Of a stretch of 13,494 nucleotides of DNA, positions 2-11,640 are shown piece after piece. The translations under genes and the position numbers were made by a program. The notes below the pieces were generated by a model, which worked only from the letters and a program-made list of their open reading frames with translations, had not been told where the DNA came from and did no database searches. Origin of the DNA: Candidatus Micrarchaeia archaeon. GTDB lineage: Archaea > Micrarchaeota > Micrarchaeia > Micrarchaeales > CABMGC01. The stretch is taken from contig JBMFHL010000017.1 of the NCBI GenBank assembly GCA_049976845.1, positions 1 to 13,494 of the forward strand, given 5' to 3'. Positions within the stretch are counted from its first letter, which is position 1, and the number at the start of each line of letters is the position of its first letter.

Positions 2-1993
2 CTGCCTCTCACTTAATCCCATCCTCTCCAAAAATCTGCGATATTCCTCATAGGTATTAGGTAGTATCCTTTGTGCTGGCGAATTCTTGAAGTTTGCAAG
101 ATTCCCCTCTATCAAATCTCCGTTAAGTAGCAGCACGGGAGTCCTGTTGCTCTCAAGCTTCTGAAAATATTCTATGCCAAGCTCAACTGATTTGTCAAGT
201 AAATCTACTTCTGCCCAGCCCCCCCAATGGACATCGCTGATTGCGACAACCCCAAGCCTCTTCACATTGTTCGGTATGCTCTCCGTAGCATAAGGTATAA
301 GCTGTAGTATCTGCTTGGCAGAAAGCCTTTTAACCTCATAATCCTTAAGCTCTGATGGAAGCTTTTGGTTTAATATAATTCTTTCAAGTTTTTTGTCCTT
401 TACCTCCTCTTCAACTTCTTTAAGTTCGGCCTCTTTGCTGCCATTCCCATTCTTATACTCGCTTCCTGACTTTTTCATACGAATGAGCTTCTTTGCTAAC
501 TTTAGCTCCTTTATATCCGCTTCAACACACTTTATTTTCAAGAATTCGCTGGTAAGTGAGGTGTGTGCAACATTTCCATCTGGAAAAACATCCACTATGC
601 TTGCGCTTGAATCTATAGGCAGCTTTTCAGCAATCTTGGTAGTTCTTGTAACAATTTTACTGTTGAGCAACTCGCTAAACATCTTCCTGTCAGCGAAAGG
701 CCCTTTTGCGAGTGATACCAACAAATTCTCATTGTTTAAATCAAATGTTGGTTCTATTGCAAATGAGGTGAAGGCATGGCCACCGCTAATAAGCATGGTT
801 ATAGGCTTCTTGAGCACATTATTTTCCCCTGATGTTTCAATATAATTATAGAAGTTTTCAACAACCGCACTGTTGCTTTTCTTAAGATATGACCTAGTGC
901 TCGCCCCAACGCTTGTTTCGCCTTTCAAAGCCAAATTAAATTCGAATCCATTGAGCTTTTTATGGATAAAAGTAGTGTCCTCCTTGAGTATAGTGAGGTT
1001 GTGCTTTCTTCCAACGTCCTTTATATATGAATAGTATTCTATCTTTACAAGTTTGTCTATAATCTTTTCTATATCAGGTTTGGTCCTAACATTATGTGTA
1101 AACATCTCTATCTGCGCTGAGCCGCTTTTGGCCATCTTCGCCAATTCCTGATTGCCAAGTTCTACAAGCCTCTTCTTTGCGGCTCTAACAAGGTTTGCCA
1201 AGGCCTTTGCCTCCCTCGCCAATTTCTCATACTCCTCCTCGTTCCCCTTGAAATTCTTGAACTGTCTATTTTTTTCATTCAGTTCTCCGGTAAGTTCCTT
1301 TATAAGCTTATTCAGCTTTTTTGAGTCAAGCCTTTGGACCGATGCGTCGATTAGCTGCTTAAAGAGTTTTGCAGCCTCCTTCAATTCAGCATACTCCTCT
1401 TTATTCTCTGCTATTTTTATCTCAGTATTCCTATATTCTTCCTGCAGTTTTAAATCATCTCTATTACTTTCAATCTGCTTCTTCAATGCGTCGCGCGAGC
1501 TCTCCGACTCTTTTATAATCGCTTTTGTGCCCTTAATACTCATATTTATCCTATTAAGTTCATCCTGTAGCCATCTCTGCTTATGTGCATAGGCAATCTT
1601 CAGATCTTTGGCTATTGCAATTATATTCTGTGCATCAGCCATTCCCGTGACATATATTACTTCTGCATGGTCGCCAAACGAGTTAAAAAGCCTCTCAAAA
1701 TGGGGCTTTATTACAGCAGACGCAGAGCTCATGTAGTTTATGCCTTCAGTTATCGATTTAAGCTGATCCTCATGCTCGTATTGTGGCATCCAGGGTATCA
1801 ATCCTGATATACCGCCTAGTATAACAACCATGTTTGGCTTCTGCACATCAGCCCCCTTGAAGTACTCCGCAAGTCCGACAAAATTGTCTTTGCTGAAAGC
1901 TGGCGTGCCCCCAAAAATGTCTGATATAACAAGAATTCTATATGAATTTATGCCCTTGCTTTCCTTCCTATAGCGTTCAGGCTCTTCCGCTAT
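2..1993 (-). CDS. Large tandem metallophosphoesterase (calcineurin-like) / coiled-coil protein, 3'-partial (runs off the window edge)
   Basis: Manual translation gives 664 stop-free codons from 1993 to 2 (IAEEPERYRKESKGINSYRILVISDIFGG...). Degenerate MPE motifs ILVISDIFGG, VVILGG, VIYVTGMAD and MLISGGH; K/E-rich heptad-like segment at about 1575-1140; second MPE domain with intact VVAISDVHWG (D at 235) and LLLNGDLIEG (D at 118). Start uncertain: ATA 1993, GTG 1846 or ATG 1831. Confidence 0.85.
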   Translation of the reverse strand, partial: MAEEPERYRKESKGINSYRILVISDIFGGTPAFSKDNFVGLAEYFKGADVQKPNMVVILGGISGLIPWMPQYEHEDQLKSITEGINYMSSASAVIKPHFERLFNSFGDHAEVIYVTGMADAQNIIAIAKDLKIAYAHKQRWLQDELNRINMSIKGTKAIIKESESSRDALKKQIESNRDDLKLQEEYRNTEIKIAENKEEYAELKEAAKLFKQLIDASVQRLDSKKLNKLIKELTGELNEKNRQFKNFKGNEEEYEKLAREAKALANLVRAAKKRLVELGNQELAKMAKSGSAQIEMFTHNVRTKPDIEKIIDKLVKIEYYSYIKDVGRKHNLTILKEDTTFIHKKLNGFEFNLALKGETSVGASTRSYLKKSNSAVVENFYNYIETSGENNVLKKPITMLISGGHAFTSFAIEPTFDLNNENLLVSLAKGPFADRKMFSELLNSKIVTRTTKIAEKLPIDSSASIVDVFPDGNVAHTSLTSEFLKIKCVEADIKELKLAKKLIRMKKSGSEYKNGNGSKEAELKEVEEEVKDKKLERIILNQKLPSELKDYEVKRLSAKQILQLIPYATESIPNNVKRLGVVAISDVHWGGWAEVDLLDKSVELGIEYFQKLESNRTPVLLLNGDLIEGNLANFKNSPAQRILPNTYEEYRRFLERMGLSERQ

Positions 1994-1998
1994 TTAAT

Positions 1999-2036
1999 CC
2001 CCCTAATTATTCATATCAATTGAAAACGTATAAAAA
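1999..2036 (-). promoter_or_regulatory. Putative TATA box and Shine-Dalgarno for the large ORF
   Basis: Minus-strand TTTTTATA at 2036-2029 and AGGGGG at 2004-1999, 5 nt before ATA at 1993. Confidence 0.45.
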
Positions 2037-3154: not shown

Positions 3155-4105
3155 TCAGGTTAAGCCTATGTAACTCCTGGCAATTACTCCTATAACTGTA
3201 GTCACAATCACCGCGCCTATTGAAATAGCGACCATCTCGAGTATCCTCTTCTTTATACTAGTGCCCCCTATTACGGCTATTATGGCAGATGCTATAGAAA
3301 GCGCAATAATGGTAAGCAATGCAGCTAGGGCTATGCCTATGAATCCGCTCATGCCTAAGGCAAATGGCATTATTGGAACAAGTGCACCAATGAAGTAATA
3401 GCTACCAGTATAGTACGCACTAGCCTTCGGTTCCCGGTTTGCCTTGTTGCCTTTCAAAGCATTTCCCACAATCTTCTCTGATTTTGAGGATAAGTATGCG
3501 CCTCCTGTCATAGACAATGTGCCCGATATTGCAATTATTATTCCGCTTATGACAACAACAAGCGGGGTATGCACGAAAGCAGCCAATCCCGCAATTGCAG
3601 CGAGCACCTCTACCAAGCCATCATTCAACCCAAAAACTATCGATTCTATATAGCCTAGCCCTTTCGAGCGCAGTTGCAGTTCATTCTGCAGCTTCACTTC
3701 ATGTTCTCTCTCGTCCTTAATTATTCTTTCTAAGTACTTCTTGTTCTTTGCGTAGAAGCTGCGGTTATGCACTGCAGACATATATATGCTAAGCCCTGCC
3801 TCTTCATTTCTCTCGAGCAGCTTGATCATGAAAGTAATCCCAAAGAGCCTCCTTGCAATCAAAAAGAGAACGACCTTCAAACCCATGGGCCTTTGTCGCT
3901 GGGGTGCCTGCCCGTCTTTTTCAATAAGCTTGTTCCAAATCTCCTTGTGCCCCCTTTCAGTTGTAGCAAGACCACTCAGCAATCTTTTGATTTTTTGGTC
4001 TTTTATTGAAGAAGCAAGTTTAGAATAAACAGTGTAATCAACAAGTTCATTTCTGAAGAAAAATCCTTCCAATTTTAATCTCTGCAGTTTTGCACTCGAT
4101 TCCAT
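3155..4105 (-). CDS. Rubrerythrin/ferritin-like domain fused to VIT1/CCC1 transporter (MbfA-like iron exporter)
   Basis: N-terminal di-iron-type motifs (NELVD, TERGH, NEEAG, DEREH) followed by the VIT1 signature IVFGLNDGLVE, GTLSMTGGAYLS and about 5 hydrophobic helices. Confidence 0.88.
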   Translation of the reverse strand: MESSAKLQRLKLEGFFFRNELVDYTVYSKLASSIKDQKIKRLLSGLATTERGHKEIWNKLIEKDGQAPQRQRPMGLKVVLFLIARRLFGITFMIKLLERNEEAGLSIYMSAVHNRSFYAKNKKYLERIIKDEREHEVKLQNELQLRSKGLGYIESIVFGLNDGLVEVLAAIAGLAAFVHTPLVVVISGIIIAISGTLSMTGGAYLSSKSEKIVGNALKGNKANREPKASAYYTGSYYFIGALVPIMPFALGMSGFIGIALAALLTIIALSIASAIIAVIGGTSIKKRILEMVAISIGAVIVTTVIGVIARSYIGLT

Positions 4106-6824: not shown

Positions 6825-7634
6825 TCAGCCTTTGACTATGGTATAATCTCCTTTGTATCTGCCAAGGAGAATATCTTTGATCACGCCTTCATCCAAGGCG
6901 TTGAAAATGTACCCCTCGGCGCCCGTTTCTTTGCATATATAATATAAATTGGAGAGCTTACCCCTCATGCCACCCGTTACATCTACCCTCCCTTTCGATG
7001 AGCCCGTATTCTGCAGAATATCCATAATGTTGCCTTTGTCTACAACCTTTATCAGTCTCGCATCATCATGCTCTTTCGGGTCTCTGTCGTAAACTCCTGT
7101 AACATCTGTTGCCAAGAAAACTTTTTTTGGCATCATTTTGGAGGCAATAAATCTGAATACCTCTTCGGTAGATGCAATGCTAACGCCTTTCCTCTTATCA
7201 ATTGAAACGTCTCCATAAACTATAGGCAAGAATCCCTTCTCCATAGCAGTCTCTATCGGCGCAACAGTACCATCAATAATCTTGCCCTCTTCTGCCAGGC
7301 CAAAGCTGCTCGGAGAGAAAGGGAACGCGTCTATGCCAAGATCCAGTGCCGTGTTTATAACTATATTGTTTAGCTCCTTGGCAGATAAATATGTCAGCGC
7401 CGCTCCCTTCCTGCTATCCTTATTTATTATACCCTCATTTACACTGTACTGCTTTGCTGGTATATGTGCGAAGGATCCACTTCCATGCCCAAGAATTATG
7501 TTAAAATTGCCCTCTTTTCTAGCATTATCAACTTCCTTAAGCACTCTTCTTATTGCATCTTGCTTCGGCGTATTTGGCTTTGAAAGGTCTGTTATCATGC
7601 TTCCTCCAAATTTCAAGAGATACAAGCTATTCAT
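6825..7634 (-). CDS. ipk: Isopentenyl phosphate kinase (amino-acid-kinase family)
   Basis: LKFGGSMITD, HGSGSFAH with the IPK-specific His, PIVYGDV, TDVTGVY, DVTGGMRGKL; overlaps the mevalonate kinase stop by 8 nt. Confidence 0.92.
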   Translation of the reverse strand: MNSLYLLKFGGSMITDLSKPNTPKQDAIRRVLKEVDNARKEGNFNIILGHGSGSFAHIPAKQYSVNEGIINKDSRKGAALTYLSAKELNNIVINTALDLGIDAFPFSPSSFGLAEEGKIIDGTVAPIETAMEKGFLPIVYGDVSIDKRKGVSIASTEEVFRFIASKMMPKKVFLATDVTGVYDRDPKEHDDARLIKVVDKGNIMDILQNTGSSKGRVDVTGGMRGKLSNLYYICKETGAEGYIFNALDEGVIKDILLGRYKGDYTIVKG

Positions 7635-8646
7635 TTATTCTACCCTTTGCCCCTGAATAATCTATGCTTACTTTTTTAACATCAAATCCTAAGCTTTTAA
7701 ACCTGTCTGTGCTTCCATTGCGTTCTGCCAACAAAACAGCTATGCCCCCGCCGCCTCCACCGCTGAGTTTAGCCCCAAGAATGCCAAGTTCCTTAGCATA
7801 AGCTACTGTTGCATCAAGCTCTTCACTCGATACCCCAAGCTGTTTAAGTAGCTCTTGATTCTTGTACATAACCTCTCCAAATCCTTTTAAATCGCCCCCC
7901 TTAAGCCGTTCAAGCCCGAGCCTTGAGCATTGATCTATATTATCTAGCAGATGCTCTGTTTCCTTTCTCCTTAACCTGTAAAGCTCAGCAACATGTCCTA
8001 CCGTTTCAGCTGTACTCTTTTTTGGCCCAGTGTCAACAACATATAGATCAAAATCAACGCTAATATGCTCTGTATTTGTCCCGCTTCCTTTGCTGTAGCT
8101 TAAAATGCCCCCGTAGAACGATGTATTGACATCAATAAGCCCTGCTTCTGCATTTTTATGTATAACCCTGTCACCATCCCTTGCGACATCTATAAGCTCT
8201 TTTTCCGGCATGTTTGGCATGCATGTTTTCGCAACTGCAAGGGTAAATGCGACAGAGCATGCGGCGCTGCTTGCAAAACCTTTTTGTATTGGTATATCAG
8301 AATTCAATTCTACAGAAACACCTTCTGCAACGCATTTATACTCGCACGTCAACCTGGCCAAGATTGTTGCATACGGTAGGGCATTGCTGTTTATATCTTT
8401 ATTTAAAGAAACAAACTCTTTGAAATCTGACCCCGCTCTGTAACTTCTATACAGTCTCTCCAATCTATCTTTGCCTATCCTTTCATCTACTCCAAGGTCT
8501 GGGAGCTTAATCTCAAACCCGTTGTCGCTTGTATAATACGCGTTGGCTCTTGCATAAATACTTATTGCTGCAGCCAAAGCAAACTTTCCATAAACAACAG
8601 CATGTTCGCCGAGCAGCTTAATCACGGCCGGTGCAATAGCCTGCAT
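7627..8646 (-). CDS. mvk: Mevalonate kinase (GHMP family)
   Basis: KLLGEHAVVYG, GHMP loop IPIQKGFASSAA, DTG..KST, LGVSS..LD, GAKLSGGGGGG; adjacent to ipk. Confidence 0.9.
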   Translation of the reverse strand: MQAIAPAVIKLLGEHAVVYGKFALAAAISIYARANAYYTSDNGFEIKLPDLGVDERIGKDRLERLYRSYRAGSDFKEFVSLNKDINSNALPYATILARLTCEYKCVAEGVSVELNSDIPIQKGFASSAACSVAFTLAVAKTCMPNMPEKELIDVARDGDRVIHKNAEAGLIDVNTSFYGGILSYSKGSGTNTEHISVDFDLYVVDTGPKKSTAETVGHVAELYRLRRKETEHLLDNIDQCSRLGLERLKGGDLKGFGEVMYKNQELLKQLGVSSEELDATVAYAKELGILGAKLSGGGGGGIAVLLAERNGSTDRFKSLGFDVKKVSIDYSGAKGRINE

Positions 8647-10409
8647 TAAATCAGTATAAAATTAGCGAGATGCTTTTTTAAGCTTATTTTCGAATTCAAC
8701 AAATATCGAAGCTCAAAAATTGGCATTCGTCCTACTAAAGAAAATTGCAAAGCAGTGCAAGCGCCATGGGCGCCTGCACCTTGCAAAAATACGCTATTGT
8801 CTTCTATAGAAAGAAATTCGCTTGCCCTAAAAACCCTAACTCCTTCTATATGCAAGTACCTTTCTGCTTCAGTATCGTTTACAATCACGAATACCTTGCT
8901 AAAATTATCAAGCCTCTTCTTTATCATCGCCTCTGCTTTTTCGAAGTTGTTCTTCCCTGTCTCATATTCTACCGCTACCCTTGCATTACCTATTCTTGCT
9001 ATTATATCAGGACCGAAGGTGCTGTTGTAAATTCTGTTGCCTATGCCTAAGTCTGTGAGGTGCCTGCTTATTAGGTCAACCAATATGTCGTGCTCCGCGC
9101 CATTCCTCTGTGTGACCATATACCATGTGCCCTCGTAGCCTTTTGCACCTGTATTATAATACCTAAGCACGCCTTCTTTCACCAGAAAGTCTATGCTCTG
9201 AAACGCCTCTTGCTCATTGAATCCGTGAGTGGCAAGCATGCTAAGCAAATTCTCCTTCTTAACAGCCCTTTTGGCTAGCTGCATTATATAATGGCTGGCC
9301 TCTTTTGCCCCTTCCAGCAAATAGAATCTCACTATAATTGGCTCTCTCAGACTTGACATCACTACAGCATGACCCTGCCTGAGCCTCCTCATGGCCTTCT
9401 TCACTTCAGAAAACCTCTCCAGTTCGTTTCCGCTTGAAATCATGTTAGATATATAATTAAGCTCCTCCGGCTCCCTTTGGTAGAAAGCAATTATCGTCGA
9501 AGCGTTGCCTCTTAGATTTTTCTCAACCTGCTTTGCATGCTGGGATAATGCAATTATGCCGATGTTGTATTTTCTTCCCTCTGCAGCAAGCCTGCCAATT
9601 ATATTGCTCTGCCCAAGCTTTTCTACCTCATCTATGATTATATAGAACCTCCTTGTCGATGTTCTCTCAGAACTCAACATGCTGCTGTAAATCTTCCTAA
9701 GGAAGCCTTCAATGTAAACAGCCTGCGCCTCACTGGTATGCAAAGACGATATTGCAAACACGCTTCTGGAGCTTAGCAGGTCATCAATGCCTATATATCT
9801 ACTAGACAATTCGGAACCAAGCATGAGGAACCTTTTCTCTAGCGAGTTCAATATGCTTACCTCGCCCTTTGTAGCGTGCCTTTTAAACACCTTTATAGAA
9901 TAGACAAGACTGTTTATGTTGGGCACTTTCCCACTCTCAGAGAAAAAGTTGTAAGTGTAAAGTATGAGTTTGTACAGCATGTAACTCTGAACCTCTCCGA
10001 GCCTGAAGATTCTTCTGAAAAGCTCTGTAAGCTCACCTGTCCTCTCTTTTATACTCATGCCATCTAGATCAAAGAGGTTTATGCCTGTATACAATGCATT
10101 GTATACCTTCGCTTCGGTCTCCTTTGCCAAATCTATGTATTCATCATGCGGGTCAAATACAATGAAGTTTGATCCATCTGCGCTGAGGCTCCTTATTATC
10201 TGCTTGCATGCGTTTGACTTGCCACTACCTGATTCCCCTACGATAAGTATATGCCTATTTATCTCGTTGTTACCAATGTAGAAATTTTTGAAGAAGACTC
10301 TGCTCCATCTCCAGTGCAGTCTTCCTACTCCTAATTTGCTTATAGAGAGCCTTCTCTCTACCGTGCCAACACTTTTGGAATTAGCCCTAAATAATTTTTT
10401 TAAAAACAC
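8646..10409 (-). CDS. HerA/FtsK/VirB4-superfamily (DUF87-like) P-loop ATPase with C-terminal PD-(D/E)xK-like nuclease domain
   Basis: HILIVGESGSGKS (Walker A), VFDPHDEY, FYIIIDE (Walker B), AAEGRKYNIGIIALSQ (Arg finger and conserved Q); C-terminal EHDILV...GPDIIARIGNARVAVEYETG. GTG 10409 preferred as start because SD GGGGTG lies 5 nt upstream and it avoids overlap with nfo. Confidence 0.82.
   Translation of the reverse strand: MFLKKLFRANSKSVGTVERRLSISKLGVGRLHWRWSRVFFKNFYIGNNEINRHILIVGESGSGKSNACKQIIRSLSADGSNFIVFDPHDEYIDLAKETEAKVYNALYTGINLFDLDGMSIKERTGELTELFRRIFRLGEVQSYMLYKLILYTYNFFSESGKVPNINSLVYSIKVFKRHATKGEVSILNSLEKRFLMLGSELSSRYIGIDDLLSSRSVFAISSLHTSEAQAVYIEGFLRKIYSSMLSSERTSTRRFYIIIDEVEKLGQSNIIGRLAAEGRKYNIGIIALSQHAKQVEKNLRGNASTIIAFYQREPEELNYISNMISSGNELERFSEVKKAMRRLRQGHAVVMSSLREPIIVRFYLLEGAKEASHYIMQLAKRAVKKENLLSMLATHGFNEQEAFQSIDFLVKEGVLRYYNTGAKGYEGTWYMVTQRNGAEHDILVDLISRHLTDLGIGNRIYNSTFGPDIIARIGNARVAVEYETGKNNFEKAEAMIKKRLDNFSKVFVIVNDTEAERYLHIEGVRVFRASEFLSIEDNSVFLQGAGAHGACTALQFSLVGRMPIFELRYLLNSKISLKKHLANFILI
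8674..8690 (-). promoter_or_regulatory. Putative BRE/TATA for mvk-ipk, embedded in the ATPase 3' end
   Basis: Minus-strand AAAATAAGCTTAAAAAA, with the TATA-like part ~30 nt upstream of ATG 8646. Confidence 0.4.
8745..8787. repeat. GC-rich inverted repeat (hairpin) flanked by TTGCAAA direct repeats
   Basis: GTGCAAGCGCC (8755-8765)-ATG-GGCGCCTGCAC (8769-8779): 10/11 Watson-Crick pairs, the remaining one is G-U on the minus strand. TTGCAAA at 8745-8751 and 8781-8787. Confidence 0.6.
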
Positions 10410-10443
10410 AAAAACACCCCGGCAAAAGCGAGGCAAAAATGAG

Positions 10444-11271
10444 CTATAATTTATCCTCAATTATCCCCCTTACCCTTCTGATCTCTTCAGATGGCGATAT
10501 CTCATTGCTCATCGGCGTTTCAAGTATCAAAGGCTTGCTCGCAAGTTTTTTATCCCCCAGAAAAGTTCTAAAACCCTCAATGCCTATATATCCAAAGCCT
10601 ATATTAGCGTGCCTGTCAAGCCTAGAGCCAAGAGGGTATTTTGCATCGTTGAGGTGTATTGCTCTTATTTCTTCAATGCCTATTGTACTCTCTATCAACT
10701 CTATTGTAGAGGGGTCTCTTATATCATAGCCGCTTGCAAATGCATGGCAAGTGTCAAAGCAGAAGCCAATCCTTTTGCTACCTATTTTGTCATATATATA
10801 AGAAAGGTCATTCAAGTCTGAGCCTATGCTATTCTTCTGCCCTGCCTCATTCTCTAGAAGCAGCATGCATTTGTAGTCCAATACCTGCAATGCTGCATTA
10901 GCTACCCTCTCCAAACTTTTCTCCTTGTTCTCTCCCAAGCTGCTTCCCATATGTGCTACAAGATATGTCATTCCTAGTTCTTCACATCTTTGCATATTCT
11001 CTTGCAAAGCCTTTACTGATTTCTTATAACCCTCGTCTTTTGGTGATGCAAGATTTGGAAGATAAGGCATATGTGCTATTATAGGATATACCTTGCGCTC
11101 TTTTCCCTTCTCCCTAAAGAAATCAGCATCATGCGGGCCAAGCTCCTGCATTGCCCAACCTCTTGGATTTGTCACAAATATCTGCATTGTATTGCCGCCT
11201 ATAGCCAAGGTTCTGTCGAATGATAAGTCTATTCTACCAGCTATTGAAACGTGGTGCCCTACTCTAATCAT
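10444..11271 (-). CDS. nfo: Endonuclease IV (AP endonuclease family 2)
   Basis: MIRVGHHVSIAG start; metal-ligand motifs HMPYLPNLAS, VAHMGS, LLENEAG, CFDTCHAF, IHLND, DRHANIG, ILETP. TTTTAAAT lies ~25 nt upstream of ATG 11271. Confidence 0.93.
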   Translation of the reverse strand: MIRVGHHVSIAGRIDLSFDRTLAIGGNTMQIFVTNPRGWAMQELGPHDADFFREKGKERKVYPIIAHMPYLPNLASPKDEGYKKSVKALQENMQRCEELGMTYLVAHMGSSLGENKEKSLERVANAALQVLDYKCMLLLENEAGQKNSIGSDLNDLSYIYDKIGSKRIGFCFDTCHAFASGYDIRDPSTIELIESTIGIEEIRAIHLNDAKYPLGSRLDRHANIGFGYIGIEGFRTFLGDKKLASKPLILETPMSNEISPSEEIRRVRGIIEDKL

Positions 11272-11640
11272 GAGCAAGATTAGACATTCAAATTTAAAAT
11301 ACTGGATGGAGAATTGGGCACTGGGGCCCGGCAAAGCCTCAGATTCAGCTGAGCTGTCTTTGCCGGTAAGCTGCCACCCCACCTTTCCTTTAGATACCTG
11401 CGCAAGCAACTCATATTCACTTGCCTTTCCTGCCTCACTTACCACTTTGCTTAAGACCGTAGCCTCAAGCAAGTATCCTGTTGCTTTTGCAATCTCTGAA
11501 AGTGCTGCATAGTCAATTCCAGTTTCGTTGCCTGGCTTCAAACTTGCCTCCTTCCACATTTCTTCCAAGGCAGTTATCAGCTTCCTTATTGTTTTCTTAT
11601 TGTATGGCAGCTTGCCCTCTGTGCCTCCTGTATTCTCCAT
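11272..11640 (-). CDS. Unknown ~100-120 aa mostly helical protein or domain, reading in frame into nfo without a stop
   Basis: ATG 11640 is preceded by SD-like GAGGCGA (11651-11645). The first ~100 residues look protein-like (NKKTIRKLITALEEMWKEA...). Same frame as nfo. Confidence 0.55.
11322..11381. repeat. GC-rich multi-stem inverted repeat at the junction between the unknown ORF and nfo
   Basis: CCGGCAAAG (11328-11336) pairs with CTTTGCCGG (11358-11366); inner CTCAG/CTGAG stem; outer TGGGG/CCCCA stem. Confidence 0.65.

Follow-up and report, generated by a model that had tools for sequence, protein, structure and literature searches.

A Micrarchaeota protein family that joins a metallophosphoesterase domain without metal ligands to an intact one

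In this study, we found that a Candidatus Micrarchaeia archaeon carries a gene for a protein with two calcineurin-like metallophosphoesterase (MPE) folds in a single chain: an N-terminal fold that retains colinear motif remnants and has lost its metal ligands (hereafter the dead domain), and a C-terminal fold that keeps the ligand pattern of an active enzyme (hereafter the live domain). The gene lies on the minus strand at one end of a stretch of 13,494 nucleotides (contig JBMFHL010000017.1 of assembly GCA_049976845.1; hereafter the window), and belongs to a family of proteins of about 900 aa that was found in Micrarchaeota metagenome-assembled genomes only and has an accessory distribution there. 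With moderate confidence, we read the protein as a metal-dependent phosphodiesterase, most likely a nuclease or an enzyme otherwise directed at nucleic acids, whose dead fold and helical arm would hold or sense the substrate. Its features, numbered by window position, are as follows.

2..1993, minus strand: partial coding sequence of the protein with tandem dead and live MPE domains, 664 codons with no stop among them; homologues have 847-958 aa and 54-81% identity.
1991..1993, minus strand: ATA codon at the position of the start Met of the homologue P0003, by alignment.
1998..2004, minus strand: AGGGGGA, a purine run that resembles a Shine-Dalgarno sequence and lies 4 nt upstream of the ATA, with a putative function judged from its letters.
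2029..2036, minus strand: TTTTTATA, a TATA-box-like candidate element about 36 nt upstream of the ATA, likewise assigned by sequence alone.
1643..1942, minus strand: first half of the dead MPE domain (residues 18-117), with SDIFGGT resembling motif I, LGG resembling motif II and the strand (VIYVTG) that precedes the motif III position, by hhalign, profile and model.
1004..1642, minus strand: K/E-rich helical insertion (residues 118-330), which opens with a near-invariant D..N (MADAQNI) and holds a near-invariant Lys (K264 in P0003).
551..1003, minus strand: second half of the dead MPE domain (residues 331-481), with motif V-like LISGGHA.
269..550, minus strand: helical linker (residues 482-575) that joins the two folds and has a KLPSEL motif shared across the family, by alignment and model.
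2..268, minus strand: start of the live MPE domain (residues 576-664), with motif I SDVH (227-238) and motif II NGDLIEG (104-124).

A first-pass annotation, made from the letters of the window, had pointed to an open reading frame (ORF) of at least 664 codons that was hidden from the ORF track. This proved right, since the frame is unbroken, continues for 232 codons on a second contig and has homologues at E = 0. The frame was missing from the track because it runs off the start of the contig (the window is the entire contig, G000:C17) and opens with ATA directly after an in-frame TAA (1996-1994); a listing that uses common starts shows a shorter version (2..1846), which begins at a GTG, has 615 aa and is 3' open. 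The host genome measures 731 kb in 52 contigs and is ~90% complete, and a family profile search of it placed the final 232 codons, terminated by a stop, at G000:C29:3-701 (locus L014). By alignment to P0003, an 81%-identical homologue, about nine residues are unassembled between the C17 and C29 pieces. SMC/Rad50-type matches were also seen at contig ends of C21, C26, C43 and C46 of the same genome, so that this low-coverage assembly seems to be interrupted repeatedly at long coiled-coil genes. Inside the gene, the plus strand has two antisense ORFs (393-845, 150 aa; 1152-1592, 146 aa) that are found again in relatives; rather than genes, they are most likely shadow frames that arise from the K/E-rich coding strand.

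The live domain was described in the first-pass annotation as intact, with motifs III to V left to be looked for downstream, and these were found on C29. Thus, all five MPE motifs (DxH, GD, GNH, H and GHxH) are present, as SDVH and NGD in the window and as SGNHFN, RVQHKL and ESHYHE on the second piece. In an alignment of 60 rows (A3), the ligand positions are occupied by D586 (59/59), H588 (58/59), D625 (58/59), N712 (51/58, with Gln in 7), H713 (58/58), H778 (58/58), H805 (43/58, with Asp in 15) and H807 (58/58). All eight canonical residues are found together in 41 of 58 rows, and the remaining 17 differ conservatively. E725 (58/58) and D724 (53/58), which lie in a DEAT motif, are specific to the family. 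Curated models recognize the domain poorly: Pfam Metallophos gives 20.5 bits on the window fragment against a gathering cut-off of 21.5, matches one of ten close members (alignment A2), and exceeds the cut-off in 12 of 39 distant members. A structural model of P0003 (904 residues), computed from 60 diverse rows, reached a predicted local distance difference test (pLDDT) of 89.3 and a predicted template modelling score of 0.89, and replaced an earlier model from ten close sequences, which was discarded at a pLDDT of 47.6. The C-terminal domain is predicted by this model to have the MPE beta-sandwich fold. Its best PDB matches in Foldseek are DP1 chains, followed by Mre11 and Rv0805, and a search independent of Foldseek agrees. 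The top viral fold matches are phage proteins labelled as DNA polymerase II small subunit.

Comparison within the host genome gave a similar picture. When a hidden Markov model (HMM) of the live domain was run against the 3838 stop-to-stop ORFs of the genome, the best matches after the protein itself were DP1 (E 1.3e-5), a PdeM-like protein (2.1e-4) and an Mre11-like protein (4.6e-3). By hhalign the PdeM-like protein came first (93.0% over 168 columns), followed by DP1 (82.8%) and the Mre11-like protein (34.2%). They are encoded by the other MPE genes of the genome: the DP1 gene adjoins that of DP2, the PdeM-type gene lies beside an Lhr-type helicase, and the third is Mre11-like. Since the genome has these ordinary genes, the present protein is an extra, fourth MPE protein.

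The first-pass annotation had further proposed that the N-terminal domain is an MPE scaffold devoid of metal ligands, and three lines of evidence bear this out. First, hhalign of residues 15-135 against the live domain gave 86.7% (E 4.4e-6) over 100 columns that are colinear with motifs I to III; the second half of the dead domain aligned weakly (4.2%). Second, a profile of the same residues, run against the 3838 genome ORFs, had other MPE proteins as its top three non-self matches (E 0.0016, 0.0046 and 0.16). Third, the fold match listed for this domain in the model of P0003 is Pol delta p50. The ESM Atlas, queried with the whole protein and with residues 15-500, gave only Metallophos-type clusters (0.84-0.87), which is a lead at most. 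The motifs read by the first-pass annotation were recovered as ISDIFGGTP at 1901-1927, ILGGIS at 1805-1822, TGMADAQNI at 1622-1648 and LISGGHA at 773-793, along with SDVH and NGDLIEG of the live domain.

The loss of ligands in the dead domain is family-wide. The position of the motif I Asp holds Glu or Asp in 45 of 54 rows, but the position of the motif I His never holds His (0/55), being Gly, Phe or Ala instead. At motif II the Asp is replaced, giving G-G in 35 and G-E in 11 of 51 rows, and motif III has become G-x-x. The domain has its own conserved set of residues, G29-G30-T31, P68, P71, K97, R102, Y115, D121 and N124, of which the last two are each kept in 55 of 57 rows. Judged from the alignment, the conservation of D121 and N124 speaks for selection acting at the dead site.

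All members have an insertion of 143-355 helical residues between the motif III position and the strand that follows. A K/E-rich, coiled-coil-like segment of about 145 aa had been proposed here, and it stands as a helical, K/E-rich segment (K 15% and E 12% in the window protein, ~1004-1642), but is longer. In the model of P0003, helices run through residues 119-331 (119-138, 140-177, 182-221, 225-247, 253-283 and 307-329), and the segment is better described as a length-variable insertion of several long helices than as one two-stranded coiled coil.

Homologues of this protein are readily found, although none of them has an informative name. A word-indexed search gave 11 proteins at E <= 0.001 among 7998 scored candidates; the full-length homologues came out at E = 0. 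Full-length members have 847-958 aa, come from Micrarchaeaceae metagenome-assembled genomes, and carry 'hypothetical protein' as every given name. An exhaustive profile search of a 1.84-billion library gave 68 representatives at E <= 0.001, of which 55 reach 1e-10 or below and 24 reach 1e-30 or below; their lengths are mostly 850-1100 aa. Nine loci were present in a collection of species genomes, all in Micrarchaeota metagenome-assembled genomes, and no relative was found among viral contigs with the patterns of alignment A2. By sequence, the PDB gave nothing below E 0.06, and NCBIfam models scanned on 13 further matches of 221-1029 aa, which comprise shorter pieces as well as full-length members with weak scores, gave no named family that links the live domain to a known group. 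The first-pass annotation did not recognize the protein as a characterized family, and we agree, since the architecture is absent from the curated families, the solved structures and those parts of the literature that were available here.

The distribution of the gene is patchy. Among 201 genomes sampled across the phylum, 40 matched the broad profile at E <= 1e-5 and 35 the narrow one. Two matches, in G052 and G180, were rejected as other phosphoesterases, since they cover 50-70 positions within frames of 277-360 aa. The true matches fall in two families of one order (14/35 in f1 and 22/56 in f2, tallies that exclude the host genome G000) and in one of three f13 genomes; none was found in the other sampled families of the set, for example f3 (0/14) and f10 (0/10). 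Thus, the gene is present, in one copy per genome, in ~40% of the sampled genomes of one order, and because these genomes are ~86-98% complete, its absence from the other 60% is not due to incompleteness. In-frame stops were seen in four copies (TAG in G124:C14, TGA in G097:C56, two TGA in G094:C1 and TAA in G116:C38), which may reflect decay or sequencing errors.

The gene tree also conflicts with taxonomy. The protein of the window shares 31-32% identity with the copies in same-genus genomes, and 58-59% and 56% with those of genera g3 and g13, respectively. The corresponding values are 71-72%, 60-62% and 37% for a pyruvate oxidoreductase subunit encoded in the window, and 57-58%, 44-45% and 34% for a HerA-like protein. 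Consistent with this, a quick tree of 21 copies placed the window copy with g13 and g3 (support 100), and the two same-genus copies with a genus of the other family (support 97). The patchy spread together with this conflict indicates an accessory gene with transfer or paralogue sorting.

How might such a protein work? The complete chain would have about 900 residues and two MPE folds. Given its full two-metal site, the live domain is predicted to hydrolyse phosphoesters with Mn/Fe-type metals. The dead domain would be an old duplicate that lost its metal ligands and gained [D/E]-x-G-G-G-T, G-G and D..N. Together with the arm it could act as a built-in partner, in the role taken by a second subunit or an accessory domain in other MPE nucleases, and may position or sense what the live site acts on. 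Most likely this is an end or a strand of a nucleic acid, because the live domain is closest, in fold and in sequence, to the DP1, PdeM/SbcD-related and Mre11 nucleases, and the size of the protein and its arm suggest a macromolecular substrate. As for the proposal of the first-pass annotation that the protein could be a ligand-sensing or scaffolded nuclease or phosphoesterase of repair, defence or nucleotide signalling, the neighbourhood offered no conserved partner, PADLOC-DB matched the helical arm only, and viral contigs gave no copy.

A more specific form of this reading, which we regard as unlikely, would make the protein a self-contained nuclease free of an ATPase, in which the dead MPE replaces the second subunit of an Mre11/DP1-type enzyme, and the metal-free pocket ([D/E]xGGGT and D..N) forms with the arm a sensor or gate that switches on the live site upon a nucleic-acid end or signal. 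A different hint comes from gene order. In some lineages the gene lies directly after IDI2 in the rpS2-mevalonate cluster, the place that RNase J presumably takes in euryarchaea. If so, the protein might process RNA 5' ends in DPANN archaea. The host genome has three beta-CASP proteins; for the two smaller, the aCPSF1 model is the best match, and RNase J models give only E 1e-6 to 1e-9. Nothing on such a displacement of RNase J was found in the parts of the literature available.

Several observations weigh against a nucleic-acid-directed enzyme as set out above. The residue after GNH is Tyr or Phe in 41 of 58 rows, where nucleases usually have Asp or Glu. No nuclease partner is conserved across the loci, and the neighbourhood consists of housekeeping genes. 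The fold match of the dead domain comes from one listed alignment of the full-length, 904-residue model, and the modelled protein is P0003 rather than the incomplete protein of the window. Finally, the copy in the window starts with ATA, so its translation may be poor.

The known systems that come nearest each share part of the design. DP1, the small subunit of PolD (PDB 6t8h, 5ihe and 8ppt), is an archaeal 3'-5' proofreading exonuclease. It is the best sequence match in the genome and has the full MPE ligand set, and its motif II in this genome (GDLVDG) resembles that of the present protein (GDLIEG), both fitting GDL[VI][DE]G. In contrast to DP1, the model of P0003 has no oligonucleotide/oligosaccharide-binding (OB) fold and no DP1 N-terminal domain, but a second MPE fold and a helical linker before residue 574. 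Curated DP1 models give 10 and 21.7 bits on the protein against cut-offs of 425 and 445, whereas the DP1 of the genome scores 460.5 bits against the cut-off of 445. The patchy rather than universal distribution and the Tyr or Phe in place of Asp after GNH also set it apart. The eukaryotic polymerase B subunits (Pol delta p50, PDB 3e0j; Pol alpha and epsilon) and Vps29 are MPE folds that have lost catalysis and serve as scaffolds. Unlike these, the dead fold described here shares its chain with a live one, carries the helical insertion of 143-355 residues, and keeps conserved residues of its own.

Mre11/SbcD with Rad50/SbcC also brings two MPE folds side by side, Mre11 being a homodimer, and also has a long helical arm. 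However, the arm is inserted here in the dead MPE and not in an ABC ATPase, and an Mre11-like gene is present separately in the genome. A scan of 37 family members against NCBIfam listed no model for Mre11 or SbcD. As regards a capping domain behind the nuclease domain, alignments with Mre11 chains extend to model residues 897-904 but include only 194-226 residues. No ATPase head family was matched, and the matches that did occur were at the level of the arm (SMC_prok_B, 20.4 bits against a cut-off of 567; LmuB, 16.7 bits); in PADLOC-DB only LmuB and LeoBC matched, at 8-17 bits and all on residues 141-348, the helical arm. Furthermore, no SMC/Rad50-type gene was present among the neighbour clusters common to at least three of the 24 loci compared, and the 664 residues in the window contain one Cys, to be compared with the Zn-hook of Mre11/Rad50. 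The PdeM/SbcD-related proteins (TIGR00024 and TIGR04123) give the best profile alignment across the whole live domain. The PdeM-like protein differs in being a single domain of 250 aa, and the present protein has ~85 residues between motifs II and III as well as the extra DEAT motif. In descent, and probably in its way of working, the protein is one of the MPE superfamily, and by these comparisons it fits none of the DP1/B-subunit, Mre11/SbcD and Rad50/SMC groups.

Among the alternatives, the one that survives best, although doubtful, is that of a small-molecule or lipid phosphodiesterase, acting on cyclic or dinucleotide signals or on phospholipid or isoprenoid-phosphate head groups. The arm would then dock on a partner or membrane, and the dead domain would bind a phosphate-bearing ligand. 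Weak NCBIfam matches to YaeI and LpxG and the Gly-rich loop kept in the dead site are consistent with it, as is the neighbourhood: in 11 of 26 distinct loci the gene directly adjoins one of the mevalonate pathway, a count compiled across separate comparisons. Four pairings are involved, with an IDI2-like FMN_dh gene (upstream and co-directional), a mevalonate kinase gene (in two same-genus genomes), an HMG-CoA-synthase-like gene and a gene of the amino-acid-kinase family (loci L008, L010-L013, L027-L029, L032-L034, L037 and L038). In the window, IPK-like and mevalonate kinase genes (6825-8646) lie 5-6.6 kb from the gene. However, the mevalonate genes stand within a housekeeping cluster with rpS2, SecY and an ABC transporter, and we take their adjacency for inherited synteny with the archaeal rpS2-mevalonate cluster, not for proof that the functions are linked. 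Moreover, nucleases are the best neighbours in both sequence and fold, and neither a signal peptide nor a membrane segment came up, though no search was aimed at either.

It is rather improbable, as a second alternative, that the copy in the window is not made or is decaying because of its ATA start, or that the ATA is an assembly error. The first codon (1993-1991) aligns exactly with the first Met (ATG) of P0003 (IAEEPE against MAEGSA), and a start at the next common start codon, the GTG at 1846, would remove the conserved first strand. Judged from the sequence, the ATA may be a start codon of a rare type, the result of a recent mutation or an error of the low-coverage assembly. The in-frame stops in four genomes noted above would fit decay, and the public sequencing runs that match the region, the likely source runs, yielded short contigs only, at a depth of 2-4; none of those listed as holding it was an RNA run. 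One low-depth run contig spans 1830-2029 with no difference listed at 1991, one of its three differences being unlisted, and one run record overhangs the contig start by 127 letters, which are not shown, so that the C17/C29 junction is unproven. These runs are probably from the sample of the assembly itself, and therefore their agreement is not independent support. On the other side, the 664 and 232 codons are otherwise open, all family-conserved residues are kept, and the purine-rich run lies 4 nt upstream of the ATA. In any case, a silent or mis-assembled start would concern the window copy only, and not the family.

It is very unlikely that the protein is a DP1/B-subunit-like accessory of a replication or repair polymerase, with MPE folds that serve mainly as a docking platform and a live site for proofreading or flap trimming, since, despite the DP1 and Pol delta p50 matches of its two domains, the likeness of motif II and a weak match of the N-terminus of one member to a DP1 model (E 8.6e-5), the genome has its own DP1 and DP2, the model of P0003 has no OB fold, DP1 models score far below their cut-offs, and a gene in ~40% of sampled genomes of an order is a poor fit to a core part of the replisome.

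Apart from the mevalonate genes, the neighbours of the gene include SecY, an ABC transporter, rpS2, a PNP-type phosphorylase, a ROK kinase and a tRNA methyltransferase. An all-against-all comparison of neighbours gave no cluster common to different lineages and no conserved operon. A HerA-like ATPase was considered as a partner and rejected: its gene is beside the present one in three loci and 6.6 kb off in the window, does not co-vary with it, and is a core gene of the order (30/35 in f1 and 47/56 in f2, tallies that include the unpublished genomes G198 and G029). In the window, the HerA/CedD-like ATPase gene (604 aa, 8646-10460, minus strand) overlaps the endonuclease IV gene nfo (10444-11640, minus strand) by 17 nt; the nfo product has an N-terminal extension of ~125 residues, and the pair is kept in both same-genus genomes. 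In one clade (L010-L013, L029, L034 and L038; for example L029:10651-11244), a gene for a protein of 195-207 aa abuts the stop codon of the MPE gene. This small protein has an invariant F.PDF...LEPHG and a copy elsewhere in the host genome (G000:C7:20440-20748), and alignment A4 gave no PDB or Pfam match; an impression that it is a PD-(D/E)xK nuclease was unsupported. Elsewhere in the window (3155-4105, minus strand), a rubrerythrin-like domain is fused to a VIT1 iron-transporter domain in a protein of 316 aa.

In summary, the second contig piece, the ATA start, the patchy spread at the level of the order and the conflict with taxonomy are new here. The family is a clear natural example of a pseudoenzyme joined to its active paralogue, in which the dead site itself appears to be under selection, a pattern seen when dead domains become regulators. 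Its nearest relatives include DP1 and the polymerase B subunits, whose history from live to dead is a classic question of replisome evolution, and the confident model (pLDDT 89) and clear catalytic residues make the protein amenable to experiment. Micrarchaeota genomes are only 0.6-1.3 Mb, yet a gene of 2.7 kb is kept by this share of the sampled genomes of one order. The retention of such a gene in reduced genomes, along with a tree that fits exchange between lineages, implies that the protein is probably useful in a symbiotic lifestyle.

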